DNA of 52,052 nucleotides from Oscillospiraceae bacterium (GTDB lineage Bacteria > Bacillota > Clostridia > Oscillospirales > CAG-272). Below the pieces are notes generated by a model. That model had not been told where the DNA came from. It did no database searches and was given only the letters and a program-made list of their open reading frames with translations. Every line of letters starts with the position of its first letter. Within the stretch, counting starts at the first letter, position 1. The DNA is taken from contig SVTA01000002.1 of assembly GCA_015064005.1 (NCBI GenBank), forward strand, positions 1 to 52,052, read 5' to 3'. Made by a program: the position numbers and the translations under genes. Shown piece after piece: positions 1,221 through 37,089 of the stretch.

Positions 1221-2126
1221 ATGCAAAATGTCATCATCCATCAAGGCTTTCTGCCGGATCTGCTATATCAGCTGCTGCCGGAGCGCCTGCTGGCTTCCAT
1301 TGCCGAGGTGCTGCCGCCTGACGCCACACCGGAGGAGATCCACCTGCGATGCGGGCGCTGCGCTTCCATCACCGTGCGGGGTAAGAGTCTGCGCCTTTCT
1401 GCCGTGTGGACCGGCGCGGAGCTGGAACGGCTGCTGCTGCAGCTTTGTCAGGGCTCGCGCTATGCTCATGAGGAAACCCTGCGCGAGGGATATCTGATGC
1501 TGGAGGGCGGTGTGCGGGTGGGTGTCTGCGGCCGCGCCGCCGTTGTGGACGGCAGAGTAACGGACATCGCGGCGCTGACGGCGCTGGTTTTCCGTATTCC
1601 CTGCGATATCCCCCAAAACGGTATCGATTTTTGCCATTTGCTGCGGTGTCTTCCGCAAGGGAAGGGGCTGCTGATCTACGCACCGCCCGGTGGCGGAAAA
1701 ACCACCGCCCTGCGCTGCGCCGCGGTCAGCCTTGCCGGCGGGGAGCATCCCCTGCGTGTGGCGGTGGTGGATACCCGCAGAGAGCTGCTGCTTCCCAACG
1801 ATCCCTCCCTTTTGGTGGACGTGCTGTCCGCCTATCCCAAGCACGTGGGCATTTCCATTGCCGCACGCACACTGGGAGCGGAGGTCATTCTCACCGACGA
1901 GATCGGAACCAAGGAGGAGGCCGAGGCCATTCTCGGTGCCCAGACCTGCGGCGTGCCGCTGCTGGCCACCGCCCACGGAGCAGAGCTATCGGAGCTTTTG
2001 CGGCGACCCGCTATCCGCTTGCTGCACGAGGCAAGATGCTTTGGCGCTTATGCCGGGCTATCCCGCACCGAGGCGGGGCAAGCACTGGCCGTGACCTCCT
2101 TTGAGGCCGCAGATGCTTTACTGTAA
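1221..2126 (+). CDS. spoIIIAA: Stage III sporulation protein AA (ATPase)
   Basis: Walker A motif APPGGGKTT. It is the first gene of a co-linear AA-AG cluster. RBS AGGAGG lies upstream of the ATG. Confidence 0.9.
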   Translation: MQNVIIHQGFLPDLLYQLLPERLLASIAEVLPPDATPEEIHLRCGRCASITVRGKSLRLSAVWTGAELERLLLQLCQGSRYAHEETLREGYLMLEGGVRVGVCGRAAVVDGRVTDIAALTALVFRIPCDIPQNGIDFCHLLRCLPQGKGLLIYAPPGGGKTTALRCAAVSLAGGEHPLRVAVVDTRRELLLPNDPSLLVDVLSAYPKHVGISIAARTLGAEVILTDEIGTKEEAEAILGAQTCGVPLLATAHGAELSELLRRPAIRLLHEARCFGAYAGLSRTEAGQALAVTSFEAADALL

Positions 2127-2592
2127 GCTGCTGGGCGCCGGGCTGCTCCTCGGCTGCGGATTGCTGGTAGGTGCGCTGCATGCAACGCTTTTGCGGCGGC
2201 GGGTGCAGCAGATGGAGGCCTTTTTGACGCTACTCACCGCACTGCGGGAGCAGATCGATCGCTACGCCGCGCCGCTACAGAGCGCCCTTGAAACGCTGGA
2301 TGCTTCCCTGCTTGCCGCCTGCGGCATTCACGAGCGCGTCCGACAGCCGGAGGAACTGCTGACGGCAGCGCCCCTTTACCTTTCAAAAGAAGGCGCAGAG
2401 GCGCTGAGACTGTTTGCGCGGGACGTTGTTGGCGTCGGCAAAGAGGAGCTGTTGCGGCGTTGCGATGCAGCCATCGAGCGACTGCGACTCTACGGGGAGG
2501 CCGCACGGCGCACGCTCCCCCGCGATACGCGGGCGGCGCTTTTTCTGCCATCGGCCACTGCCGCGGTGCTGGCACTGCTGCTATGGGACTAA
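2113..2592 (+). CDS. spoIIIAB: Stage III sporulation protein AB
   Basis: Supported by its position in the operon, an N-terminal TM segment and a helical remainder. The ATG at 2113 overlaps the spoIIIAA end. A TTG at 2101 is an alternative start. Confidence 0.75.
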   Translation: MLYCKLLGAGLLLGCGLLVGALHATLLRRRVQQMEAFLTLLTALREQIDRYAAPLQSALETLDASLLAACGIHERVRQPEELLTAAPLYLSKEGAEALRLFARDVVGVGKEELLRRCDAAIERLRLYGEAARRTLPRDTRAALFLPSATAAVLALLLWD

Positions 2593-2650
2593 CGGCGCCG
2601 CAAGGAAATGGAATGAGCGGCCGGATTTCCGGCCATAGGAGGATCATATC

Positions 2651-2845
2651 GTGGACGTAAGTTTGATTTTTCGCGTGGCCGGAGTGGGGATCTTAGTGGC
2701 CATTGCCGTGCAGATCCTGCAAAAGACCGGCAGGGACGAGCAGGCCACGCTGGTAACCGTATCAGGCATCGTAGTGGTATTTTTAATGCTGGTGGGCGAG
2801 ATCGGAGAGCTGTTTTCCGCTGTGCGCGAGATCTTCGGCTTCTGA
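2651..2845 (+). CDS. spoIIIAC: Stage III sporulation protein AC (64 aa, two TM)
   Basis: MDVSLIFRVAGVGILVAIAVQILQKTGRDEQATLVTVSGIVVV matches the SpoIIIAC pattern. GTG start with AGGAGG 9 nt upstream. Confidence 0.85.
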   Translation: MDVSLIFRVAGVGILVAIAVQILQKTGRDEQATLVTVSGIVVVFLMLVGEIGELFSAVREIFGF

Positions 2846-3231
2846 TGGGCGCCCTGCAGATGACGGGCGTGGCGCTTCTCGCTTCTATGCTGTTGCTGTT
2901 GCTGCGGGAGCTGCGCCCGGCGGCAGCGCCGCCACTGCGGCTGGCGGCAAGCATCTTTTTTGTCAGCGGCGCACTCTCGCTTCTCTCCCCTGCTCTCCTG
3001 CGCCTTGGCGAGCTTCTTTCATTGGCCGGCGGCGATGCTTACACCGAACTTTTGCTGACGGCGACAGGAATCGCGCTTGCTTGCGAGCTGGGCGCCGGCT
3101 TTTGCAGGGATCTGGGAGAAAGCGGCATAGCCGAGGGGCTGCTGTTCTTTGGACGGGCAGAAATACTGTTGCTGGCACTACCGCTGGTGGATCAGCTGGT
3201 GGATCTGGCAAGGGAGATGCTGTCATGGTAA
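2845..3231 (+). CDS. spoIIIAD: Stage III sporulation protein AD
   Basis: 128-aa polytopic membrane protein that directly follows AC with a TGATG overlap. Confidence 0.8.
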   Translation: MGALQMTGVALLASMLLLLLRELRPAAAPPLRLAASIFFVSGALSLLSPALLRLGELLSLAGGDAYTELLLTATGIALACELGAGFCRDLGESGIAEGLLFFGRAEILLLALPLVDQLVDLAREMLSW

Positions 3232-4376
3232 AAAAAGTGGCGAAAATGTGCGGAATATGCCTTCTTTTACTGGTCTGTTTCGCAATCAACGCCGGCGCGG
3301 CGGAGATAGAAATCGGCGCGGAAAGCGCCGCTATTGCCGAAGATTGGCAGCACTTCCTTGACGCCATCCCAGAGGAGATCGCCGATCTCCTGCCCGAGGG
3401 CTTCTTTTCTGAAGATGTGGAGGGTGCGGGGGAGGCCCTGGCGGAGGCTGGCAGCATTTCGGTGATTTTCGATACCGTTTTACGGTTAAGTGGGATTTCC
3501 ATCAAGGACGCGATAGGGCTTTTGGCGCGCATTTGCGGCATTTTGGTGCTGGCAGCAGTGCTGCGCACCGTCACCGACGGCAAAAGCGACGGTGTCTGGC
3601 GAGCGAGCTCGCTTTGCACCACAGCCACGCTTGCGTTGGTGATCCTGCTGCAGCAAAACACAAAATTCGCAGCAATCGGGGCTTGTTTCGATACCGTTCG
3701 GGGGCTTTCTACCGCACTGCTCCCGCTGATGGGCACGCTGTACGCTATGGGTGGCAACGTATCTACTGCCGTTGCGCACCACGGCGTAATGAGCGTGTTT
3801 CTGGCCATATTAGAAAATGTCTGCAGCGCCACAGCGCTGCCCTTGGCAGGCATTTGCCTGACCATGGCGCTGTTGGACAGCGTCAGCGACGGCCTTTCCC
3901 TTCGTTCCCTCACTGCCCTCATCAAGCGCACCTACACCTTTGCGCTTTCTCTGGTCATGCTGCTGCTTTGTGGAGTGCTGGGGCTGCAATCCACCCTTGG
4001 AAAGGGTGCGGACACACTGGCGCTACGCACCATCCGCTTTGCGGTGGGCAGCTTTCTGCCGGTGGTGGGAGGATCTGTTTCCGAAAGCTTGCGCACCGTG
4101 GCGGGCAGCGTGGCGTATTTGCGAGGCACAGTGGGGGTTGGCGGTATACTGGTGCTGTTTTTTGCCTTTCTCCCTTTATTTTTATCGGTTCTGTTTACCC
4201 GAATGGCCCTTCAGCTGGGTGGCTCGGTGGCGGGCATGCTCGCCTGCCAAAGAGAGGAGCGGCTCCTGGCCGAGCTCGCCGGTGTATGCGGCTACTTCAT
4301 GGCCATCATCGCCTGCCTGTTCGTCACCGTTTCCTTCTCGCTGACCCTGCTTGCCCACTGCGCGGCAGCCATTTAA
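3225..4376 (+). CDS. spoIIIAE: Stage III sporulation protein AE
   Basis: Signal-like N-terminus MVKKVAKMCGICLLLLV followed by a polytopic C-terminal half. The ATG at 3225 overlaps the AD stop. The 5' extension of the ORF track (from 3081) lies inside AD. Confidence 0.85.
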   Translation: MVKKVAKMCGICLLLLVCFAINAGAAEIEIGAESAAIAEDWQHFLDAIPEEIADLLPEGFFSEDVEGAGEALAEAGSISVIFDTVLRLSGISIKDAIGLLARICGILVLAAVLRTVTDGKSDGVWRASSLCTTATLALVILLQQNTKFAAIGACFDTVRGLSTALLPLMGTLYAMGGNVSTAVAHHGVMSVFLAILENVCSATALPLAGICLTMALLDSVSDGLSLRSLTALIKRTYTFALSLVMLLLCGVLGLQSTLGKGADTLALRTIRFAVGSFLPVVGGSVSESLRTVAGSVAYLRGTVGVGGILVLFFAFLPLFLSVLFTRMALQLGGSVAGMLACQREERLLAELAGVCGYFMAIIACLFVTVSFSLTLLAHCAAAI

Positions 4377-4392
4377 AACCGAAAGGAGTGTT

Positions 4393-4866
4393 ATGCTGCA
4401 AACAACCTTACTCGGGCTTTTTGGCATCCTCTTGGCCACTTCGCTGATGGGACTCCTATGGGGCGGAGATCGTTCACGCGGCCCTCGCGGCGCCGTGACG
4501 TTGATTACGGGGCTCTTGGTGCTGACGCTATTGCTGCAGCCCCTCTTAGCCTTGTTTCGAGGCGATATTGACCTTTCTCTGGAGGGCATACAGCCCCCCG
4601 AGGAGCTGGAAGCGCAGTATCGGGAGGCCTTTGAGGAGGCACTGGCCGCTCGAGGTGAGGAGGATCTGCGAAGCGGACTCTACGCACTGCTGAAGGAACG
4701 GTATCAGCTGGAAGTCAAGGATGCCCAAATACGCATTTTTTACGATGATGAAAAAAATCTCTCCGCCATCGGGATCACACTGCAGAAAGAGGGACTCCTA
4801 CAGGATCCGCGACGCATAGAACGCGATCTTGAAAATATACTTGAATGCAACGTGGAGGTGCGATAA
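4393..4866 (+). CDS. spoIIIAF: Stage III sporulation protein AF
   Basis: Two N-terminal TM helices plus a soluble C-terminal domain. RBS AAAGGAG precedes the ATG at 4393. Confidence 0.75.
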   Translation: MLQTTLLGLFGILLATSLMGLLWGGDRSRGPRGAVTLITGLLVLTLLLQPLLALFRGDIDLSLEGIQPPEELEAQYREAFEEALAARGEEDLRSGLYALLKERYQLEVKDAQIRIFYDDEKNLSAIGITLQKEGLLQDPRRIERDLENILECNVEVR

Positions 4867-5366
4867 TGCGAGAAAATATCAAAGTATACGGCATCCTTGA
4901 CTATTTAAAAGAGCGAAAAAAGCTACCCCTGATCATCGGCGGCCTCTTGCTGGGCATTTTTCTGCTGATTCTTGGCGGCATCAGCACCTCAAAGGGAGAG
5001 ATTTCAAATCAACCGGATGCATTGGCATTGCGGGCAGAGGAGCTGCGCCTTTTCGAGGCGCAGCTCGAAAAGGAGATTGAGGTGCTGTGCGAATCGGTGG
5101 GAGGCGTTTCGGACGCCACGGTGATGGTCAGCTTTTCACGCGGCTATTTGGTCAAGTACACCGCCGATGCCGACGGTGATCCCACCACCGTGGGCAGCGG
5201 CAGCAGCGAGGAGGCGGTCTTTGGAACGCTGGAGCCCCCCGCCGTTATCGGCGTGGGCATCGTCTGCCGCGGCGGACACAGCGCCGAGGTGCAGCAGGTA
5301 CTGGTGGAGCTGGTTTCCACCGCGCTGGGCATCCCGGCCAATCGGGTCTACATCGCGGGAAAGTGA
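4866..5366 (+). CDS. spoIIIAG: Stage III sporulation protein AG
   Basis: Single TM segment. The C-terminus PPAVIGVGIVCRGGHSAEVQQVLVELVSTALGIPANRVYI resembles the SpoIIIAG ring-forming domain. The start overlaps the AF stop (TAATG). Confidence 0.8.
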   Translation: MRENIKVYGILDYLKERKKLPLIIGGLLLGIFLLILGGISTSKGEISNQPDALALRAEELRLFEAQLEKEIEVLCESVGGVSDATVMVSFSRGYLVKYTADADGDPTTVGSGSSEEAVFGTLEPPAVIGVGIVCRGGHSAEVQQVLVELVSTALGIPANRVYIAGK

Positions 5367-5402
5367 CAAGCACCGGGAAACGGAACCGTTTCCCGGTGCT
5401 TG
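5367..5402. terminator. Perfect 17-bp stem hairpin lying exactly between two convergent stop codons
   Basis: caagcaccgggaaacgg-aa-ccgtttcccggtgcttg. There is no flanking U-tract on either strand. Confidence 0.6.
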
Positions 5403-6176: not shown

Positions 6177-8155
6177 CAGGTGGCAATACCCGCAAACTGA
6201 TTGCGGTAGAGCTTGGCATACTCGCCACCCTGCTGCAGCAGCACCTCGTGGCTGCCGGATTCCGCAATGACGCCATCCTTGACCACCACGATCACGTCCG
6301 CGTCACGAATGGTGGACAAACGGTGGGCGATCACAAGGGAGGTGCGGTTCTTCATCAATGCCAGCATAGCCTGCTGAATGTGCATCTCCGTGCGGGTGTC
6401 CACCGACGAGGTGGCCTCGTCAAGAATGAGAATTTTCGGGTCGGCCAGCACCGCCCGGGCAATGGCCAGCAGCTGTCGCTGTCCTCTTGACAGGTTGCTG
6501 CCGCCCTCGGCCAGCACCGTGTCGTAGCCGTCGGGCAGACGGTTGATGAAGCGATCTGCCTTGGCATGAGCCGCTGCCGCCTCCATTTCCGCATCCGTAG
6601 CGTCGGGGCGGCTGTATTTGATATTGGCGCGAATGGTATCGTGGAACAGCACCGTATCCTGCAGCACGATGGCGATGGAGCGGCGCAGCGTCCGCTTGGG
6701 CAGCTGGCGAATATCCATACCGTCCACGGTGATATTGCCATCCACCACCTCATAAAAGCGCGTAAGCAGGTTGACCACGGTGGTCTTGCCGGAGCCGGTG
6801 GCACCCACAATGGCGATCTTCTGCCCCGCCTTGACGGTGAGATCCAGCCCCCGCAGCACTGGCTCGCCCTCCACGTAATGGAACTGCACCTTCGAGAACT
6901 GAATATCGCCCTTGATCTCGGCCGGCAGCACCTCCAGGGTACCCTCGTCGATCTCGTCGGGGCTATCCATGATCTCGAAAATGCGCTCCGCACCCGCGAG
7001 CGCGGTGAGAATGGTGGAATACTGATTGGCGATCTGGTTGATGGGATGGGTGAATTTTTTGGAATAGGAAAGCATGGACTGAATGTTGCCGATGCTGACG
7101 GTGCTGCTGCCCGAGAACAGGATCAGCGCACCTCCGGTGGCGGCAATGAGTACGTATTGCAGATTGCCGATAAAGTTCATCACCGGGCCCATAATGGAGC
7201 CCCACACCCGCGCCTTGACGGCGCAGTCCCGCAGCTCGCCGCTGATACCGCTGAAGACGTGCACTGCATCCTGCTCCTTGCCGTAGGCCACCACGGTCTC
7301 GTAGGATGTGACCATTTCCTCCACAGTGCCGTTGAGACTGCCCAGCAGCCGCTGCTGACGGATAAAATATTTCCGCATGAATTTGGCAAGCTTGGTGGAA
7401 ACAAATATGGAAAGCGGAATGGTCACCAACGCCACCAGCGTCATCACGGGGCTTAACACCAGCATCATGGAGAAGGCGCCCACCAGCGTGATCACACCGG
7501 AAAACAGCGCGGTGATGGACTGGGAAATGGCGTTGGACACGTTCTCTGCATCATTGGTCATGCGGGACATCAGGTCGCCGTGGCGATGAGTATCGGTATA
7601 GGAAATGGGCAGACGGGAGATCTTATGGAAGAGATCGCTGCGCAGATTATAGACCGTCTGCTGGGAAAGCTTGGCCGAAATGGTGCCCTGAAAATAGCTG
7701 AGCAGCGAGCTTGCAAGGAACAGCACGCCCATAGCCACGAGATTGGGCACGAGACCCGCGGTTTTGCCGCTGCGTCCCACGTAGGCGCCGGCAGTAAAAT
7801 GCACCTTAAAGGTGGTTTTTACCTCAATATCCCCCCAAACGGGGTCGTTTTTTTCGTAGTCAAAGAGAATTTCGCCGGTTTCGGCATTGCGGTAGACAGG
7901 CTCGATGGCGTCAATGGCTCTACCCTGCAAAAGCGGGCCGCAGAGATCCGCTGCCGTCACCAACAGCATGATGACAAGCAGACTGATCAGCACGTATTTG
8001 CTCCTGCCGAGATACCGCAGCAATCTGCCGATAGTCTTTTTCATATTCTTGGGCTTTTGCACCACGGCGCGGCTGTTCATATTGCCGCGGCCGGGGCGGA
8101 AATCCAACGCAGGCGCCGTCTGACGGCGCTCCTCGCGGCGTTCACCGTTATTCAT
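6176..8155 (-). CDS. ABC exporter, fused permease/ATPase subunit (MdlB/MsbA type)
   Basis: Six-TM N-terminal half. Walker A GATGSGKTT, signature LSRGQRQ, Walker B ILILDEATS. The ATG at 8155 is preceded by AGGGAGGTG and overlaps the partner gene's stop. Confidence 0.9.
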   Translation of the reverse strand: MNNGERREERRQTAPALDFRPGRGNMNSRAVVQKPKNMKKTIGRLLRYLGRSKYVLISLLVIMLLVTAADLCGPLLQGRAIDAIEPVYRNAETGEILFDYEKNDPVWGDIEVKTTFKVHFTAGAYVGRSGKTAGLVPNLVAMGVLFLASSLLSYFQGTISAKLSQQTVYNLRSDLFHKISRLPISYTDTHRHGDLMSRMTNDAENVSNAISQSITALFSGVITLVGAFSMMLVLSPVMTLVALVTIPLSIFVSTKLAKFMRKYFIRQQRLLGSLNGTVEEMVTSYETVVAYGKEQDAVHVFSGISGELRDCAVKARVWGSIMGPVMNFIGNLQYVLIAATGGALILFSGSSTVSIGNIQSMLSYSKKFTHPINQIANQYSTILTALAGAERIFEIMDSPDEIDEGTLEVLPAEIKGDIQFSKVQFHYVEGEPVLRGLDLTVKAGQKIAIVGATGSGKTTVVNLLTRFYEVVDGNITVDGMDIRQLPKRTLRRSIAIVLQDTVLFHDTIRANIKYSRPDATDAEMEAAAAHAKADRFINRLPDGYDTVLAEGGSNLSRGQRQLLAIARAVLADPKILILDEATSSVDTRTEMHIQQAMLALMKNRTSLVIAHRLSTIRDADVIVVVKDGVIAESGSHEVLLQQGGEYAKLYRNQFAGIAT

Positions 8156-9956
8156 TTGCGGCACCTCCCTTCTGCATCTGGGACGCGTAAATATCACGGT
8201 ACGTATCACTGATCCGCAAAAGCTCCTCATGGGGGGCGCAATGGCGGATGGTACCGTCCTCCACCACCGCGATGCGGTCTGCACTCTTGACGCTGGCCAC
8301 GCGCTGGGCGATCATAATGACGGTGGTATCCTGCATCCGCTCGCGAAGCGCCGCCTGCAGCTTTGCCTCGGTGGAAAGATCCAATGCCGAGGTGGCATCG
8401 TCCAGCACCAATATTTCCGGCCTTCTGGCTACGGCGCGGGCAATGGAAAGCCGCTGCTTCTGGCCGCCGGAAAGGGACGCGCCCTTCTCCGCGATCATGC
8501 TGTCATAGCCGCCGGCAAAGCCGGTAATAAAGCCGTCTGCCTGCGCGACCTTTGCCGCATCCTGCACCTCCTCGTCGGTGGCGTCCTTTCTGCCCCAACG
8601 GATATTGCCGGAAACGGTATCGGAAAACAGCTCACTTTTCTGCAAAACGAAGCCCACCTTGCGCCGCAGCTCCTTCAGCTTATAGGAGCGCACCGGCGCG
8701 CCGTCCACCAGCACCTCTCCCTCGGTGGCATCGTAAAATCGGGAGATAAGATGCACCAGCGACGATTTGCCGGAGCCGGTGGCGCCCACGATCGCCAGCG
8801 TTTCGCCTCTCCGCACCTGCAAGTTGATATCGTGCAGCACGGGGGCGCCCACGGTGCCGGGATAGCGGAAGCTGACGTTTTTGAACTCCACCGCCACAGG
8901 GGCCTCCGGCGCGGTCACGGCCCCCTCACCGTCCACGATGACAGGGGCGGTATCCATCACCTCCCGCACGCGCTTGACGGAGGCAAGGGCACGGGAAACC
9001 GAGTGGAACATGGTGGTCATCATCATGATGGAAAACACCACCTGCGTGGTATAGGTCACGGCAGCCATCACGTTGCCGGTGCTCATGCCACCCAGGCCCT
9101 CGGCAATGCTGCTGCCGCCGAGATAGATGATGGCAATGACCGCAAAATTCTGCACAAGCACCAGAACGGGGTGCGTTATGGCCATCAGACGCTGCACGCG
9201 GTAGCTGATATTCCGCAGCTCGCCGTTGGCGGTATCAAAGCGGCCGTTCTCGTATTCCTCCTGCACGGAGGCCTTCACGATACGGGCACCGCTGACATTC
9301 TCCTGCACCACGCAGTTGACGCGATCCAGCTTCTTCTGCACCACGGAAAACAGCGGCACGGCACGGGAAAGCACCAGCACCAGCGTCACCAGCAGCACCG
9401 GCAGTGAGATCAGCAGCACCATGCCGAAGCGGATATCCAGCGTCAGCAAAAATACGGTGCCGCCCACGAAAAACATGGGGGAGCGCACGAACATCCGCAG
9501 CAGCATTTCCACAAACTCCACGATCATAGCGATATCGTTGGTCATACGGGTGACCAGCGACCCCGTGGTGAAGCGGTCGGTCTGCTCAATGGAAAGGGAC
9601 ATGACCCGCGCGTAGGCATCCCGCCGCAGATCGTGGCCGAAGCCCTGTGCCGCGCGAGCCGCGGTATAGGCACAGAAGGTGCCGAAAAAGCCACCGATCA
9701 GCGTCACCAGCAGCATCAGAATACCAAACGTGATGATGATATGCAGGCTGGTGTAATTCCCATCGGGGAAAAGAATCCCCATGACGGTGGATGCCAACCG
9801 GCTCTCCCCGATATCCTCGCCAATGATGCCGTAATTAACAATAAAGGACATCAGATACGGCAGGCAAAGATCCGCCAGCACCTCGCCCATCATCAGGAGA
9901 GGCGAGAGAATGGCAAAGCCCCGATAGGGCTTCAAATAGCGAAACAGTTTACGCAA
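8148..9956 (-). CDS. ABC exporter, fused permease/ATPase subunit (heterodimer partner)
   Basis: Walker A GATGSGKSS, signature LSGGQKQR, Walker B ILVLDDATS. Confidence 0.9.
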   Translation of the reverse strand: MRKLFRYLKPYRGFAILSPLLMMGEVLADLCLPYLMSFIVNYGIIGEDIGESRLASTVMGILFPDGNYTSLHIIITFGILMLLVTLIGGFFGTFCAYTAARAAQGFGHDLRRDAYARVMSLSIEQTDRFTTGSLVTRMTNDIAMIVEFVEMLLRMFVRSPMFFVGGTVFLLTLDIRFGMVLLISLPVLLVTLVLVLSRAVPLFSVVQKKLDRVNCVVQENVSGARIVKASVQEEYENGRFDTANGELRNISYRVQRLMAITHPVLVLVQNFAVIAIIYLGGSSIAEGLGGMSTGNVMAAVTYTTQVVFSIMMMTTMFHSVSRALASVKRVREVMDTAPVIVDGEGAVTAPEAPVAVEFKNVSFRYPGTVGAPVLHDINLQVRRGETLAIVGATGSGKSSLVHLISRFYDATEGEVLVDGAPVRSYKLKELRRKVGFVLQKSELFSDTVSGNIRWGRKDATDEEVQDAAKVAQADGFITGFAGGYDSMIAEKGASLSGGQKQRLSIARAVARRPEILVLDDATSALDLSTEAKLQAALRERMQDTTVIMIAQRVASVKSADRIAVVEDGTIRHCAPHEELLRISDTYRDIYASQMQKGGAANE

Positions 9957-9965
9957 AGCTCTACC

Positions 9966-10448
9966 TCATCTTTCCTTTAAGTTTTCATATACACGCTGCA
10001 GCAGCGCCGTCAGCTGCGCCTCCTCCGCAGGGGTAAAGCCCTCCATGGCACAGCGATCGTTTTCGGTGATCAGATTGAGATGCTCACGGTCAAAAGCACG
10101 GCCCTTTTCGCTCAGTGCTACCAGCATCACACGGCGATCCTTCTGATCCGGCCTGCGGCACACATATCCCTCCGCCTCCATTTTGCGCAGCAGAATACTG
10201 ACGGTGGGGGTGGAGAAGTGGGTTTTTTCCGCCAGCGTGAGCTGACTTGCCTCGCCCAAAACCGCCAGATGTGCCATCAGCACGCGGGCCGCGTGCTGGG
10301 ACATCACGCCGGTCGCCTCATTCCGTCGCACGCGGTAGCGCAGCTGCCTGGCCACATCCATGATCAGGCGAGGCGCCTGCGGCAGGGATTGCAGCTCAAC
10401 ACGCTCCGGCATAGCAGGAGCGGGACCGTTTGGAAGATGTTCCTTCAT
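9966..10448 (-). CDS. MarR family transcriptional regulator
   Basis: Winged-helix segment LTLAEKTHFSTPTVSILLRKMEAEGYVCRRPDQKDRRVMLVALSEKG. The ATG at 10448 has a GGAGG 6 nt upstream. The ATG at 10460 is an alternative start. Confidence 0.85.
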   Translation of the reverse strand: MKEHLPNGPAPAMPERVELQSLPQAPRLIMDVARQLRYRVRRNEATGVMSQHAARVLMAHLAVLGEASQLTLAEKTHFSTPTVSILLRKMEAEGYVCRRPDQKDRRVMLVALSEKGRAFDREHLNLITENDRCAMEGFTPAEEAQLTALLQRVYENLKER

Positions 10449-10594
10449 ATTGGCCTCCATAATAATTTATTAGCAAACTAATTATAGCAGATTCCGGCAG
10501 TTTGTCAAGAGCTTTCTCTTTGATTTTATCCGGATCGCTTTATTTTTTTCGACAGCCGTGTGCCTCGACCGATAAATTGGGGCTTATCGCAATG

Positions 10595-10895: not shown

Positions 10896-11036
10896 ACTTC
10901 CCGAAAGGGCTTGTGCGAACAAAGCGACAAATCAACATTAAAAAAACAAATCTTGGCAACAGTTGCGTATATTGTTATTGGTGAACGGCGTTTTTTCGGG
11001 CATAGTAATAGCACAGCGAAATTTGGGGGAATTTTT

Positions 11037-12080
11037 ATGATAAAATTGGAAAACAGGGGCAAACGGGTGGCGTTTTTGGCACTTTTGCTCTGCTTTGCCC
11101 TCCTCCTTTCCCTGCCGCTTTCGGCAGTGGCAAGGCGAGAGGAGCGAGAGGTGCTGTTGGTGGGCGGCATCCCGTTTGGGGTGCGCTTTTTTACCGATGG
11201 GATCCTTGTTGTTGGGTACTGCGACGTCACCTGCGGCGGGCGAGCCAAGAATCCCGCGCGGGATGCCGGGCTCCAGCCCGGGGATTGTATTATAGAAGTC
11301 AACGGTCAACGACCGCAAAGCGTGACGGAGCTCTCCGAGGCCATTCACAACGCGGGCGGCACGCCGCTGACGCTGACCGTGCGGCACAAAGGCGAGGACA
11401 AGCAGGTGACCCTCTCACCGGTGGCCTGTGACAAGGATGGCAAATGCCGCACGGGGCTTTGGGTGCGGGATTCCGGCGCCGGCATTGGTACTGTCACCTT
11501 TGTGCGGCAGGAGGATCTCTCCTTCGGTGGGCTCGGACACGGCATTTGTGACGGAGAAAGCGGATGTTTGGTTCCCATGGCGCGGGGCAGCGTGCTGGGC
11601 GCGGAGATCGGCGGTATCAAAAAGGGCGCCGTGGGGGCGCCGGGCGAGCTGAAGGGACATTTTTCCGCAGGCAAAAGCGGCACAGTGCTGCAAAACACCG
11701 AGTGCGGCGTGTTCGGCTATTTCGGGGAGCAACCGACCCTTCCAGCCGGCGCGATGCCCATTGGCTACAGGGAGGAGCTGCGCGACGGCGCAGCGACCCT
11801 GTGGTGCACGCTGGATGACAACGTCACGCGGGAATACGGCATTGAAATTTCGGATATTCACAGAAACGCCACGGGCAACAAATGCTTCACCGTCACCGTC
11901 ACCGATATGGATCTGTTAGAGAAAACCGGCGGCATCGTGCAGGGCATGTCGGGCAGCCCCATCGTGCAGAACGGTAAGCTGGTGGGAGCGGTGACCCACG
12001 TGCTCATCGGAGACCCCACCACGGGGTATGGAATCTTTATTGAGAATATGCTGGAGAACATGGCGCAGGCGCTGGGGTAA
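11037..12080 (+). CDS. spoIVB: SpoIVB peptidase (S55 serine peptidase, PDZ domain)
   Basis: Signal/TM N-terminus, PDZ-like PGDCIIEVNG, and the catalytic-region motif [20 protein letters not shown]. The ATG at 11037 follows GGGGGA. Confidence 0.9.
   Translation: MIKLENRGKRVAFLALLLCFALLLSLPLSAVARREEREVLLVGGIPFGVRFFTDGILVVGYCDVTCGGRAKNPARDAGLQPGDCIIEVNGQRPQSVTELSEAIHNAGGTPLTLTVRHKGEDKQVTLSPVACDKDGKCRTGLWVRDSGAGIGTVTFVRQEDLSFGGLGHGICDGESGCLVPMARGSVLGAEIGGIKKGAVGAPGELKGHFSAGKSGTVLQNTECGVFGYFGEQPTLPAGAMPIGYREELRDGAATLWCTLDDNVTREYGIEISDIHRNATGNKCFTVTVTDMDLLEKTGGIVQGMSGSPIVQNGKLVGAVTHVLIGDPTTGYGIFIENMLENMAQALG
11952..12016 (+). repeat. Left copy of the 65-bp direct repeat (inside the intact spoIVB)
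   Basis: ggcagccccatcgtgcagaacggtaagctggtgggagcggtgacccacgtgctcatcggagaccc. Confidence 0.9.
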
Positions 12081-12150
12081 AGCGGACCGTCGAGGAAGCC
12101 GGTCCCTACAAGTGATGCCACAGGGGCGGGCGAAGTGGACCGCACGCAAA

Positions 12151-12187
12151 AAGGCAATATCATTCCTTCACGGTTTGATATTGCCTT
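12151..12187. terminator. Hairpin between spoIVB and the convergent cassette gene
   Basis: aaggcaatatca ... tgatattgcctt (12-bp stem). Confidence 0.55.
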
Positions 12188-12213
12188 GTGTCATGTTCGA
12201 ATCGTTATCGCAA

Positions 12214-12741
12214 TTATACCTTGAAGTATTTTTTGATCACGGCATCAACATTTCTTTCCTTAACCGAGCCATCATCATATACTTCTCCGGTTTGATATTT
12301 TTGTGTAAAAGAAGCCACATTGCCGCACTTCGCACAGGTACAAGTAAAGTCAACATGCTCTATTCTTATACCTTCAATCTGTTTTCTATCAGAGTTGGGG
12401 TTTGTTTTCTTATCTTTGATTTCAATCTCACCGACCTCCCATTCCACACAGGTCTGATAATCATATCTTGCACCGCATTCCTGGCAAAAATTTCTCCGAA
12501 TTCTCTTCAATTCTCCAGGCACCCACACCGCCAACAAAACAGCTATGGAGATCAAAGCCGCACAAATACCAATAAGAGCATTGCCCAAAAGTAACAGGCT
12601 TCCTACTATGAAAACCGCTGCTACTATTCCTGCAACAATAGCTGCCGAAATCCATACCTTTCTCTTTGAGCGCTTATATGCGCTCATATCAACCTTGATT
12701 TCATTCTTTTTTTCAACAACATCCATTTTCTTTTCCTCCAT
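12214..12741 (-). CDS. Hypothetical two-TM membrane protein with a C-terminal CxxC...CxxC zinc-ribbon domain
   Basis: Hydrophobic stretches VWISAAIVAGIVAAVFIVGSLLLL and ALIGICAALISIAVLLAVWV, then CQECG ... CAKCG. Low-GC codon usage. The internal ATG at 12726 has the better RBS (GGAGG). Confidence 0.7.
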   Translation of the reverse strand: MEEKKMDVVEKKNEIKVDMSAYKRSKRKVWISAAIVAGIVAAVFIVGSLLLLGNALIGICAALISIAVLLAVWVPGELKRIRRNFCQECGARYDYQTCVEWEVGEIEIKDKKTNPNSDRKQIEGIRIEHVDFTCTCAKCGNVASFTQKYQTGEVYDDGSVKERNVDAVIKKYFKV

Positions 12742-12912
12742 TGTGAATAAAATTGTACCAACATAGAATCATTAATGTTGGAGTGCCAATATTGTATCAT
12801 ATTTTTGGGCCGTTGTCAATACTAATAACTTAAATTTTACCTATAAATATCTTCTTTTAAAGTTATTGGTGTTGTATAATCAAGATAAACCAGCATTGCA
12901 AAAGGAGAAAAA

Positions 12913-13239
12913 ATGAATATAGATTACAAACTGATTGGCGAGAGAATCAAAAAAGCTCGCAAATCCAAAGGGCTCACACAGGATATTCTTTCGGAAAAGC
13001 TGAACGTATCCATTGGTTATGTTAGCCAGGTTGAGCGCGGTATAACAAAAATAAGCCTTGATCTGCTTGGCGCAATCTCAAGCATATTAGAGTTTGATAT
13101 TGCAAGTTTTATAACCGAAAGCGCTCCAAATTCAAACGATTATGTGGAGTCCGAGCTTCTCTCCGAAATCCGAAAGCTCGACGGGAAGAAAAAGAAATAT
13201 ATACTTGAGATTATCAAATTAACCAATGATATAATGTAA
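12913..13239 (+). CDS. XRE-family helix-turn-helix transcriptional regulator
   Basis: IGERIKKARKSKGLTQDILSEKLNVSIGYVSQVERG is a canonical HTH_3 motif. RBS AAAGGAG. Confidence 0.9.
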   Translation: MNIDYKLIGERIKKARKSKGLTQDILSEKLNVSIGYVSQVERGITKISLDLLGAISSILEFDIASFITESAPNSNDYVESELLSEIRKLDGKKKKYILEIIKLTNDIM

Positions 13240-13240
13240 A

Positions 13241-13286
13241 AAGGTAATGCTTTTCCTGAAACGGATTGGCATTACCTTTATATTTT
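13241..13286 (+). terminator. Rho-independent terminator of the XRE gene
   Basis: aaggtaatgc ... gcattacctt followed by tatatttt. Confidence 0.6.
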
Positions 13287-13323
13287 CGTTAAAATGCGTT
13301 GTCCTTTATTGACCACACTCCTG

Positions 13324-13457
13324 AGCGGCAGCCCCATCGTGCAGAACGGTAAGCTGGTGGGAGCGGTGACCCACGTGCTCATCGGAGACCCGACCACAGG
13401 CTATGGCATTTTTATCGAGAATATGCTGGCCAATATGGCCGAAGCGGCGGGAAAATA
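13324..13457 (+). pseudogene. spoIVB: Orphaned 3' fragment of spoIVB (encodes ...[44 protein letters not shown])
   Basis: The first 65 nt are identical to 11952-12016. Next come 6 synonymous differences, then a divergent C-terminus. It has no catalytic N-terminal part. Confidence 0.85.
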
Positions 13458-13540
13458 AGCAATCATAACCACCGGCTGCGCCGGGCACTCGCGTGAGCCT
13501 GCCTATCATATTATTCGTGATTCATTGGCTGTAAAAGCAC

Positions 13541-13578
13541 CAAGAACCCGCCCCATGGGGCGGGTTCTTGGCGGTTTT
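13541..13578 (+). terminator. Probable original spoIVB terminator
   Basis: caagaacccgcccc-at-ggggcgggttcttg followed by gcggtttt. Confidence 0.65.
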
Positions 13579-13684
13579 ACGTTTGCACAGGGCGGGTCTT
13601 CAGGGCAGTATAGGAATCCTCGCTGTAGCGAGGTCGGCTGCCGTCCGGTCCCGATTCCACGCATTTCTTTTTTATGATCTCCAC

Positions 13685-36612: not shown

Positions 36613-37089
36613 TCAGGTATAAAACTCGGGACGTTTCCCCTCCCCCTCTGCGGCGGATGCCACCGCTGCCGGCACGCCGCTGCCGATTTCCGTTGCGGCG
36701 GGCTGGTGCTCCTGCTCCCGCGGGGGGTGCACGTCACCGCGGGGCACCAGCCCCAAGCTGACCGCGATGGCGGTGTCAATATCCGCCATCAGCGCCTCGT
36801 CCAGATGCCCCATCTTCTCCTTCAGGCGGCGCTTGTCAAGGGTGCGCACCTGCTCCAGCAGCACAATGGAATCTCTCGAAAGCCCCGCCCGCTCTGCGTA
36901 CACGTCGATGTGGGTGGGCAGCTTGGTCTTTCCCATACGGGAGGTGATGGCTGCCGCGATCACCGTGGGGCTGTAGCGATTGCCCACGTCGTTTTGTATG
37001 ATCAGCACCGGGCGCATGCCGCCCTGCTCTGAGCCGACCACGGGGCTGAGATCGGCGTAATAGATATCTCCGCGCTTTACAGTTATCAT
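36613..37089 (-). CDS. mazF: MazF/PemK (EndoA-like) endoribonuclease toxin with a ~45-aa C-terminal extension. No adjacent antitoxin gene.
   Basis: [47 protein letters not shown] is nearly canonical EndoA. All three upstream frames (37090-37270) are closed. Confidence 0.85.

Follow-up and report, generated by a model that had tools for sequence, protein, structure and literature searches.

An XRE regulator and a membrane zinc-ribbon protein travel as a two-gene module on an integrase-less cassette in the 3ʹ end of spoIVB

The window analyzed here is a stretch of 52,052 nucleotides (nt) from an Oscillospiraceae bacterium (NCBI GenBank assembly GCA_015064005.1, contig SVTA01000002.1, positions 1 to 52,052 of the forward strand). 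Downstream of spoIVB, the gene of the SpoIVB signaling peptidase, it holds two divergently transcribed genes, one encoding a regulator of the XRE family (12913–13239, plus strand) and the other a small membrane protein with a zinc-ribbon-like domain (12214–12741, minus strand). The pair is a genuine, self-contained, conserved and horizontally moving two-gene module, and the region that holds it is the cargo of a 1375-bp integrase-less cassette that recombined into the 3ʹ end of spoIVB. Both open reading frames (ORFs) had been listed in a preliminary description of this DNA, made from the sequence alone, and were found exactly at the coordinates given there.

The regulator has 108 amino acids (aa), with a helix-turn-helix (HTH) domain at about residues 8–65 and a C-terminal tail of about 40 aa, a layout like that of SinR. 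Pfam HTH_3 matched residues 12–63 with 45.9 bits against a gathering threshold of 23 (E = 5.7e-12). In PADLOC, the matches were to generic HTH models only (HTH_VI, capH and Control_protein, the last down to 1e-7), and the nearest PDB sequences were those of SinR and ClgR, which were the best, and C.BclI (8e-5). A hairpin after the stop codon (13237–13282, plus strand; AAAAAGGTAATGC...GCATTACCTTT) is likely the terminator of the XRE gene and is conserved in the related loci L003, L010 and L044 (labels of this form denote loci compared with the window). A single-base indel at 13173 was observed in L005 and L007, two metagenome samples with the same island, where the last ~20 residues of the regulator are frameshifted and its length is 102 instead of 108 aa.

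The membrane protein gene encodes 175 aa from its first ATG, and its actual product probably has 170 aa, since a GGAGG Shine-Dalgarno sequence falls inside codons 2–3 of the longer ORF, 9 nt ahead of a second ATG (12726), and the homologs begin to align at this second ATG; gene callers chose the same start. An AlphaFold model obtained with 14 homologs was confident (mean pLDDT 82), with helices at residues 20–52 and 55–84 as a membrane hairpin, followed by three long β strands, a short strand and a C-terminal helix. Basic clusters flank the hairpin (KRSKRK before the first helix and KRIRR after the second), and the interhelix loop has 2–4 uncharged residues. As basic residues stand at both ends of the hairpin, the positive-inside rule predicts that both termini and the cysteine domain are cytoplasmic, and the predicted layout is a basic cytoplasmic N-terminus, a membrane hairpin at about residues 29–74 and a cytoplasmic β-rich domain with the pattern CxxC...CxCxxC. 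Invariant among 14 close homologs were C86, C89, C134, C136, C139, an NPNS loop, W30 and P75; across 47 diverse members of the superfamily, only C86, C89, C136 and C139 were invariant, and C134 was nearly so. Judged from this conservation, the four cysteines make up a putative classical four-cysteine zinc ribbon. Two CxxC knuckles flank β strands in the model, as in the zinc-ribbon fold class, with metal binding as a prediction, and the zinc-ribbon Pfam families DZR, Zn_Ribbon_1 and CpXC gave sub-threshold matches only.

The pairwise ratio of nonsynonymous to synonymous substitution rates (dN/dS) was 0.07–0.23 for the membrane protein gene and 0.02–0.10 for the XRE gene, and synonymous sites were saturated in both (dS > 1.5 in most pairs). 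The combination of low dN/dS with saturated synonymous divergence indicates that both ORFs are real and old genes under strong purifying selection, not chance ORFs. It also means that non-coding sequence still conserved between copies of the module is constrained.

In a profile search of 1.84 billion representative proteins, the membrane protein belonged to a superfamily of 295 clusters (50% identity) at E ≤ 1e-3, or 120 at E ≤ 1e-10. Members are mostly 140–190 aa long and share a common plan of a membrane hairpin, a CxxC, 37–50 residues and a second CxxC; the extra domains of fused, longer members were uninformative. No Pfam family matched consistently over 47 members, FeoB_associated being a weak match in 1 of the 47. 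A scan with the family alignment gave no hit in GTDB genomes and only the L010 contig in JGI metagenomes. The protein in the window matched RTasSLATT over its membrane helices (E = 3e-4) and, more weakly, Phage_holin_3_6 (E = 0.034). An identity with SLATT was rejected: the RTasSLATT match was seen in 1 of 47 family members and for this reason is best read as transmembrane composition, no profile of SLATT or other two-transmembrane (2TM) effectors matched family-wide, and no reverse transcriptase, SMODS or similar gene was a neighbor in any locus. As for a holin, the Phage_holin_3_6 score of 14.7 bits fell short of the 28.4-bit cutoff, neither lysin nor phage genes were nearby, and no homologs were found in phage records. 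The family is undescribed and unannotated. The gene products had been characterized at the outset as a 108-aa XRE HTH protein and a 170–175-aa protein with a basic N-terminus, two transmembrane (TM) helices and a CxxC domain, the second of them with no recognized enzymatic motif and not assignable to a described family, and each of these statements agreed with our ORF calls, the Pfam match, the AlphaFold model, the cysteine conservation and the searches of Pfam, NCBIfam, PHROGs, PADLOC, PDB and BFVD; structure prediction, which had been proposed as a check, gave the model above, and Foldseek found no significant relative for it.

We then considered how strictly the two genes keep together. The count covered eight distinct close genes (at least 51% identity) and four distant homologs (26–35% identity), and a divergent small XRE/HTH gene stood beside every homolog with a readable flank. 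For close homologs (51–100% identity), the head-to-head gene encodes a 108-aa HTH_3 or an 80-aa HTH_26 protein, and for the distant homologs L048, L051, L052 and L053, a 69–80-aa HTH_3 gene occupies the same divergent position in 4/4. The membrane protein was never seen without an XRE gene among homologs with readable flanks. The sites of the distant homologs are mutually unrelated, with genes for sialidase, sulfatase, dihydroorotase and AdoMet decarboxylase nearby. Loss on the other side was observed: L044 has an XRE gene 86% identical to that of the window (7998–8324, plus strand) and the same control region with a different partner (7147–7824, minus strand), a 225-aa multi-TM (4-TM) protein that ends in a CxxC...CxxC ribbon and can be no more than a distant relative (hhalign probability 37%), and L021 has a 74% identical XRE gene (6458–6784, minus strand) with only a truncated partner ORF. 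The regulator with its operator thus seems to behave as a portable unit.

In every host with a GC content of at least 0.47, the pair is a low-GC islet (0.37–0.41 versus 0.47–0.58). Close homologs were also found away from spoIVB, beside an M24 peptidase gene in L009 and beside gpsA in L014, whose short contig has the 49-nt hairpin described below and no orphan spoIVB fragment; in L001 and L002, the module adjoins spoIVB without the long flanking repeat. A functional tie between the membrane protein and SpoIVB was rejected, as L009, L014 and the distant homologs L048–L053 are not beside spoIVB. Judging by these locations, the link to spoIVB belongs to the cassette as a vehicle and not to the function of the pair.

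The intergenic control region measures 171 nt between the start codons (186 nt to the likely membrane protein start) with a GC content of 0.27–0.30, in line with the 170-bp AT-rich region between divergent genes noted at first. In an alignment of seven related modules, L044 included, it was conserved at the nucleotide level despite the saturated synonymous sites. The sigma-A-type promoter of the membrane protein gene (12791–12819, minus strand) has the -35 box TTGACA (12819–12814), a 17-nt spacer and the extended -10 box TGnTACAAT (12799–12791); it scored 11/12 consensus matches plus the TG in a promoter scan and was conserved in the seven modules. The XRE promoter region (12848–12880, plus strand) contains an invariant TATCTTCTTTT block, a weak -35 box TTCTTT (12852–12857) and the -10 box TATAAT (12875–12880). 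Between the two -35 boxes lies a 20-bp palindrome (12825–12844; consensus ATARCTAAAATTTTAGYTAT), the candidate XRE operator, with its center ~51 nt upstream of both predicted transcription starts; it is kept in L044 despite the different partner gene. A candidate third operator half-site, TTTTAAAGTTAT (12855–12866), read directly from the sequence, overlaps the weak -35 box and the spacer of the XRE promoter. Such an arrangement most likely has XRE acting on both promoters and repressing its own gene, and it is compatible with either repression or activation of the membrane protein gene. No Rfam family matched the region. An 8-bp inverted repeat, ACCAACAT...ATGTTGGA (12757–12782), was also observed in the predicted 5ʹ leader of the membrane protein transcript; the other modules do not conserve it.

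The insertion site was reconstructed by comparison with L017, the closest relative (SpoIVB 88% identical), in which the site is empty and uninterrupted. In the window, spoIVB (10911–12080, plus strand; likely start 11037; S55 and PDZ domains, Pfam Peptidase_S55 1e-73) is still a full-length ORF, with the last ~8 codons (from ~12056) derived from the cassette. Its 3ʹ end is present as a direct repeat of 125 nt (11952–12076 and 13327–13451), with copies 89% identical and 1375 nt apart. The 3ʹ end, stop codon and downstream terminator of L017 match the orphan copy of the window and what follows it, and the sequence upstream matches the attached copy. From left to right, the 1375-bp insert comprises a spoIVB tail that replaces the native one, a GC-rich spacer of 133 nt, the two genes and a conserved end motif, and the cassette stretch 12150–13300 has 27–46% GC versus ~58% in the genome. 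The attached repeat copy (11952–12076, plus strand) is host-like to 12042 and foreign from 12056. The orphan 3ʹ end (13321–13458, plus strand), which contains the second repeat copy, starts at the catalytic-serine motif L-SGSPI, is cassette-like to 13417 and native (L017-like) from 13431, and is followed by the native downstream sequence and terminator (13531–13580). Only two ORFs under selection and no recombinase or transfer genes were found on the insert, and of the 35 Pfam families that matched 39 window ORFs, the 25 listed did not include an integrase.

These comparisons upheld most of what the preliminary description had said of the context, namely that the genes sit on a cassette (the flanking repeat, the low-GC stretch and the uninterrupted site in L017), that this is foreign DNA (the low GC, the empty site and the islet in each higher-GC host) and that XRE and membrane protein are cognate partners (a divergent small XRE/HTH gene at every readable flank). 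Of the neighborhood pattern it proposed to look for, the co-occurrence with XRE was found throughout, and location in defense islands or prophages was not, the neighbors of the distant homologs being metabolic; housekeeping contexts without the XRE partner, which it had named as contrary evidence, were looked for and not seen, because the XRE partner was always present.

The GC-rich spacer (12081–12213, plus strand) was carried in with the cassette; neither L017 nor the native downstream sequence contains it. Within this spacer lies a terminator-like hairpin (12150–12187; stem GGCAATATCA...TGATATTGCC) that also follows spoIVB in L011, L018 (twice), L024, L027, L031, L034, L035, L037, L042 and L044. 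Many related species have this hairpin as their usual spoIVB terminator, whereas L017 and the native locus of this genome do not, indicating that the left arm came from the spoIVB locus of another species. Its stem is kept in species with SpoIVB only 50–70% identical, so strong a conservation that it would be unusual for a plain terminator. In faecal metagenomes, contigs over 12009–12182 at 90% likeness had mean depths of 4000–6000x, with variable sequence flanking the hairpin on both sides. The nearby segment 12097–12142, considered as a diverged copy of the 49-nt hairpin described below, was dropped since it does not fold in that way (z = -1.1).

The crossover was placed within 12043–12055 (GAGAATATGCTGG), as the attached copy is L017-like to 12042 and different from 12056, and the orphan is the reverse. 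It lies ~100 nt from the border of the element, and the three-way comparison with L017 gives the footprint of one reciprocal crossover. A site-specific cut at the motif border would leave the orphan wholly native and the attached copy wholly foreign, which was not seen. In L044, the switch falls between nt 45 and 105 of the repeat (compared with its relatives L028 and L029), a crossover point different from that in the window and not the fixed core of site-specific exchange. In both the window and L044, the orphan's first serine is encoded by AGC, as opposed to TCG in the host gene, which shows that the border codons are cassette-borne. Because the crossover points vary, these sequences suggest insertion of the cassette by homology; site-specific integration followed by gene conversion would also be compatible with them. 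A circular or looped-out cassette would insert in the Campbell manner through its spoIVB arm, and the reverse reaction between the repeats would excise it. Metagenome contigs covered the island at only 3–6x depth, too little to weigh either way, and at 99% identity no in-register joint, neither an empty site nor a circle, was found for this species; at 90% identity, the signal was swamped by the spoIVB ends of other species.

A repeat of ~125 nt, 89% identical, at a gene's 3ʹ end with a second copy 1.4 kb downstream, on an island that has no integrase, could also arise as part of a diversity-generating retroelement, or the island could be a decaying prophage or the remnant of an integrative and conjugative element (ICE) with two incidental genes. 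We consider both of these highly improbable. The retroelement was rejected because there is no reverse transcriptase, the mismatches between the copies are of all kinds and not adenine-specific, and one repeat copy is the displaced native end. Against a remnant speak the clean insertion visible in comparison with L017, the purifying selection on both genes, and the recurrence of the same site and end motif with seven other cargos, none of which includes phage or conjugation genes.

This recurrence emerged from a scan of GTDB for SpoIVB, which gave 31 loci, all in metagenome-assembled genomes labeled Clostridia, Eubacteriales, Oscillospiraceae, Lachnospiraceae or Ruminococcus; those with a stated source came from ruminant guts. 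Different cargo occupies the spoIVB 3ʹ end in seven or more other Clostridia of the ruminant gut, and orphan 3ʹ fragments were found in L003, L010, L011, L018, L023, L027, L042, L044, L046 and L047. Every orphan starts at the catalytic-serine motif, with [V/L]SGSPI in place of GMSGSPI. In these related gut Clostridia, the 3ʹ end of spoIVB is an insertion hotspot. The XRE and zinc-ribbon protein genes are the cargo in the window, L010, L011 and L012/L013 (the last two abut spoIVB on the attached side), and they are joined by the gene of a 295-aa Fic protein in L003. The cargo of L001 is Imm26, a short Fic protein, an HTH gene and the zinc-ribbon protein, and that of L018 (7038–8051) is a Phd-like antitoxin with a Doc toxin; L047 probably carries Phd-Doc too, as it shares the L018 sequence next to the end motif. 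Other cargos are AraC with a PFL-like glycyl-radical enzyme and its activase in L023 (6993–11100) and L027 (6945–11327), AraC with a 569-aa protein in L042 (6942–9927), an XRE-TPR regulator with a small membrane protein in L036 (6966–8829), and XRE with the 4-TM zinc-ribbon protein in L044 (7050–8548). None of the cassettes read at the spoIVB site encodes a recombinase, and no integrase-bearing relative at this site was found among the 31 related loci. In L027, a foreign-type orphan is followed by further cassette-type sequence, which looks like two cassettes stacked in tandem. The orphan of L018 holds an internal insertion of ~50 nt (7917–7970), and that of L023 is truncated (11026–11085); decay of orphan copies is expected for non-functional remnants.

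Directly upstream of every orphan, in at least 10 loci and whatever the cargo, we found a motif of ~40 nt, TTTTCGTTAAAA-n3-GTTGTCCYTTMTTGACCACACTC. In the window, this right-end motif of the cassette family reads TTTTCGTTAAAA-n3-GTTGTCCTTTATTGACCACACTC (13283–13320, plus strand; core 13298–13320) and abuts the orphan fragment; the window holds a single copy, where chance would give 0. Its positions elsewhere are 1803–1840 in L003, 7835–7874 in L018, 10885–10924 in L027, 9777–9816 in L042, 8375–8413 in L044, 435–472 in L046 and 977–1014 in L047. The motif stays conserved while synonymous sites of the neighboring genes are saturated. It was not found in IMG/VR. The motif corresponds to the left half of a perfect 49-nt hairpin, GTTGTCCCTTATTGAACACACTC...GTAAGGGACAAC, present in L014/L015, L036, L042 and L027. 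This hairpin (GTTGTCCC...GGGACAAC) stands between runs of A and T, and a second hairpin sharing its stem often comes after it (1929–1977 in L014, 1311–1359 in L015, 7074–7122 and ~7163–7235 in L036, 6962–7010 and 7051–7073 in L042, and 11113–11160 and ~11192–11250 in L027). The hairpins fold far better than shuffled sequences (z = -5 to -8), the inner stem is maintained by different sequences in L042 and L014, and no Rfam family matched them. The junction between cassette and spoIVB would fall in the hairpin loop, and the 49-nt hairpin may serve as a terminator, in recombination or as an origin of transfer.

As to function, we tentatively favor, at rather less than even confidence, that XRE checks a membrane-acting effector of a toxin, abortive-infection or exclusion kind. 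An XRE dimer would bind the conserved palindrome between the divergent promoters and the third half-site in its own promoter, and would thereby autoregulate and set the expression level of the membrane protein, whose near-consensus promoter would otherwise fire constitutively. The membrane protein would be the effector in a conflict, with the cytoplasmic zinc-ribbon sheet sensing or binding a partner and the glycine/alanine-rich hairpin acting on the membrane; the module may keep the cassette stably in its host, shield that host, or do both. This reading is based on the strict pairing, the one-sided loss, the strong promoter of the effector, the foreign composition and the sister cargos, in which Phd-Doc and Fic make conflict-type genes common at this site. 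A role as toxin or in exclusion is therefore plausible.

Several results weigh against such a role. No sequence or fold likeness to a known toxin, holin, SLATT, abortive-infection or exclusion protein was found: the membrane protein had no match above threshold in Pfam, NCBIfam, PHROGs or PADLOC and no significant match in a sequence-profile search of PDB, and Foldseek comparison of the model with PDB and BFVD gave best E values of 0.11 and 0.008, respectively, with TM-scores below 0.3. Searches of 50,697 phage and 72,556 plasmid records by tblastn detected no homolog, and a family-alignment scan of IMG/VR gave none either. The frameshift in the XRE tail of L005 and L007 persists beside an identical, intact membrane protein gene. 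The distant homologs adjoin metabolic genes and not defense islands or prophages, and plain metabolic cargo (AraC with a glycyl-radical enzyme) occurs at the same site, meaning that the spoIVB site does not imply defense. Finally, the candidate main operator lies upstream of both -35 boxes (at about -41 to -61), a position that suits activation as well as repression.

The position of the operator also bears on the main rival explanation, in which the two proteins are a signal-transduction pair: the membrane protein would be a sensor or anti-repressor that binds XRE or its DNA through the zinc ribbon, and XRE would be released or sequestered on an envelope or extracellular cue, with the pair itself and possibly host genes as its targets, in the manner of CylR1/CylR2 or of SinI acting on SinR. 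Activation from the operator would fit such a pair, as would the strict co-occurrence and co-evolution of both genes, the SinR-like length and layout of XRE with a C-terminal tail that could be a protein–protein interface, the strong purifying selection on the whole cytoplasmic domain, as for a specific binding surface, and the XRE-TPR regulator with a small membrane protein at the same site in L036. But the 1.4-kb cassette has no other gene to regulate, the 69–80-aa XRE proteins of the distant modules have no tail, and the variant with the frameshifted tail persists in two samples. We regard this explanation as unlikely.

The metabolic neighbors of the distant homologs and the metabolic cargo with its own regulators in sister cassettes would accord with an ordinary accessory function at the membrane, for instance metal or zinc handling or protection from envelope stress, with no role in conflict. 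Small cysteine-rich membrane proteins do exist in metal pathways, and the weak FeoB_associated match points the same way. This seems to us a poor candidate, and decidedly improbable, because a transporter or enzyme partner is never adjacent, the pair travels alone as a low-GC islet, and no family matches consistently. The unannotated but widespread family of 295 clusters, XRE-linked wherever flanks could be read, is a very small and clean candidate for a new membrane-acting toxin, defense or signaling module.

Taken more widely, the pair may be one cargo of an undescribed cassette system of gut Clostridia and itself a new family of membrane-acting addiction or defense modules, a combined claim that we hold to be possible but doubtful. 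Each cassette would be small and recombinase-less. It would bring along, as a portable arm of homology, a copy of the part of spoIVB that is best conserved, which runs from the codons around the catalytic serine to the stop codon, and would end in the ~40-nt motif derived from the 49-nt hairpin. By a single crossover, cassettes would insert into the spoIVB of any host without inactivating it, stack in tandem, and shuttle regulator-plus-effector units (XRE/zinc-ribbon, Phd-Doc, Fic and AraC/glycyl-radical enzyme) between species. The hotspot is at the end of an essential sporulation gene, and the coding sequence of a catalytic site appears to serve as the landing pad. If true, this would be a simple and so far undescribed route for gene movement between spore-forming gut bacteria, and it might offer a natural template for placing genes at chosen sites in Clostridia that resist engineering. 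In the literature searched, we found no description of recombinase-less cassettes at the spoIVB tail that bring the conserved 3ʹ end of their target, share an end motif, stack in tandem and vary in crossover point. Pairing a small regulator with a membrane effector on mobile DNA is not a new idea. The protein family has not been described before, but of the two results the cassette system is the more novel and the part most worth following.

Elsewhere in the window, genes of the spoIIIA operon (AA, AB, AE and AF) and a MarR regulator lie upstream of spoIVB (1221–5400 and 9966–10460), and the order spoIIIA-MarR-spoIVB was also found in L001 and L004; this conserved sporulation neighborhood indicates that the host is a spore-former. 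A gene for a MazF/PemK-type toxin is located at 36613–37089 (minus strand; Pfam E = 1.3e-35), and a TIR_2 domain (E = 4e-21) was matched in one of the 39 window ORFs that were scanned.

Compared with described systems, the module resembles the type II toxin–antitoxin pairs with XRE antitoxins (HigBA, HipBA and MqsRA) in the small XRE HTH protein tightly linked to one partner, the mobile AT-rich islet and the Phd-Doc sister cargo. It differs from them in that its genes are divergent with separate promoters instead of forming one operon, and that the partner is a membrane protein with no match to a known toxin family in Pfam, NCBIfam or PADLOC. In PADLOC-DB 2.0, no defense system was recognized, with generic HTH matches only for XRE and no consistent match for the partner. 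The C proteins of restriction–modification systems (C.BclI and C.AhdI) are likewise small XRE proteins with a palindrome just upstream of the -35 box and a second site over their own promoter, a layout that delays the expression of a dangerous gene on incoming DNA and makes it self-limiting. Unlike in those systems, there is no restriction or methylase gene here, a strong promoter of its own serves the controlled gene, and XRE binding is predicted. In its small membrane hairpin with both termini inside and a cytoplasmic C-terminal domain, the membrane protein is like SLATT proteins, the 2TM effectors of CBASS and retrons, and class II holins; however, the matches were sub-threshold and seen in 1 of 47 members, no sensor enzyme, reverse transcriptase, cyclase or endolysin accompanies it, and the zinc ribbon is foreign to those proteins. 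CylR1/CylR2 consists of a small membrane protein and a 66-aa XRE HTH protein, and SinI antagonizes SinR. The short XRE repressor paired with a small membrane or antagonist protein is common to these and to our module, but they control neighboring operons, whereas the cassette here holds nothing else.

The cassette itself shares with cis-mobilizable elements (CIMEs), reportedly defined in ICEberg 2.0 and classically represented by the fda-linked elements of Streptococcus thermophilus, the flanking direct repeats derived from the 3ʹ end of the target gene, an intact target gene, no integrase, recombinase or transfer genes on the element, and tandem accretion at a hotspot. In contrast to CIMEs, no cognate ICE or integrase was found for the site, the crossovers vary and lie up to ~100 nt from the border, and the cassettes share the ~40-nt end motif related to the 49-nt hairpin. 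Integron cassettes and the pdif modules of Acinetobacter plasmids are small recombinase-less units with conserved hairpin-related ends that are stacked and carry toxin–antitoxin pairs among their cargo, and the spoIVB cassettes are like them in being small, recombinase-less and of single function, with a hairpin-related end, stacking and a toxin–antitoxin pair among the cargo. Unlike integrons, they have no IntI gene or attI, and no integrase was seen among the listed Pfam families; their cargo has its own promoters and regulators, and the outer ends of the hairpin are GTT...AAC, of opposite polarity to attC. Moreover, the target junction would lie in the hairpin loop, and there is no resemblance to dif. 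The spoIVB cassette system thus departs from each of these in its defining features where they could be compared, and its closest described relatives would appear to be CIMEs and, more loosely, integron cassettes and pdif modules.

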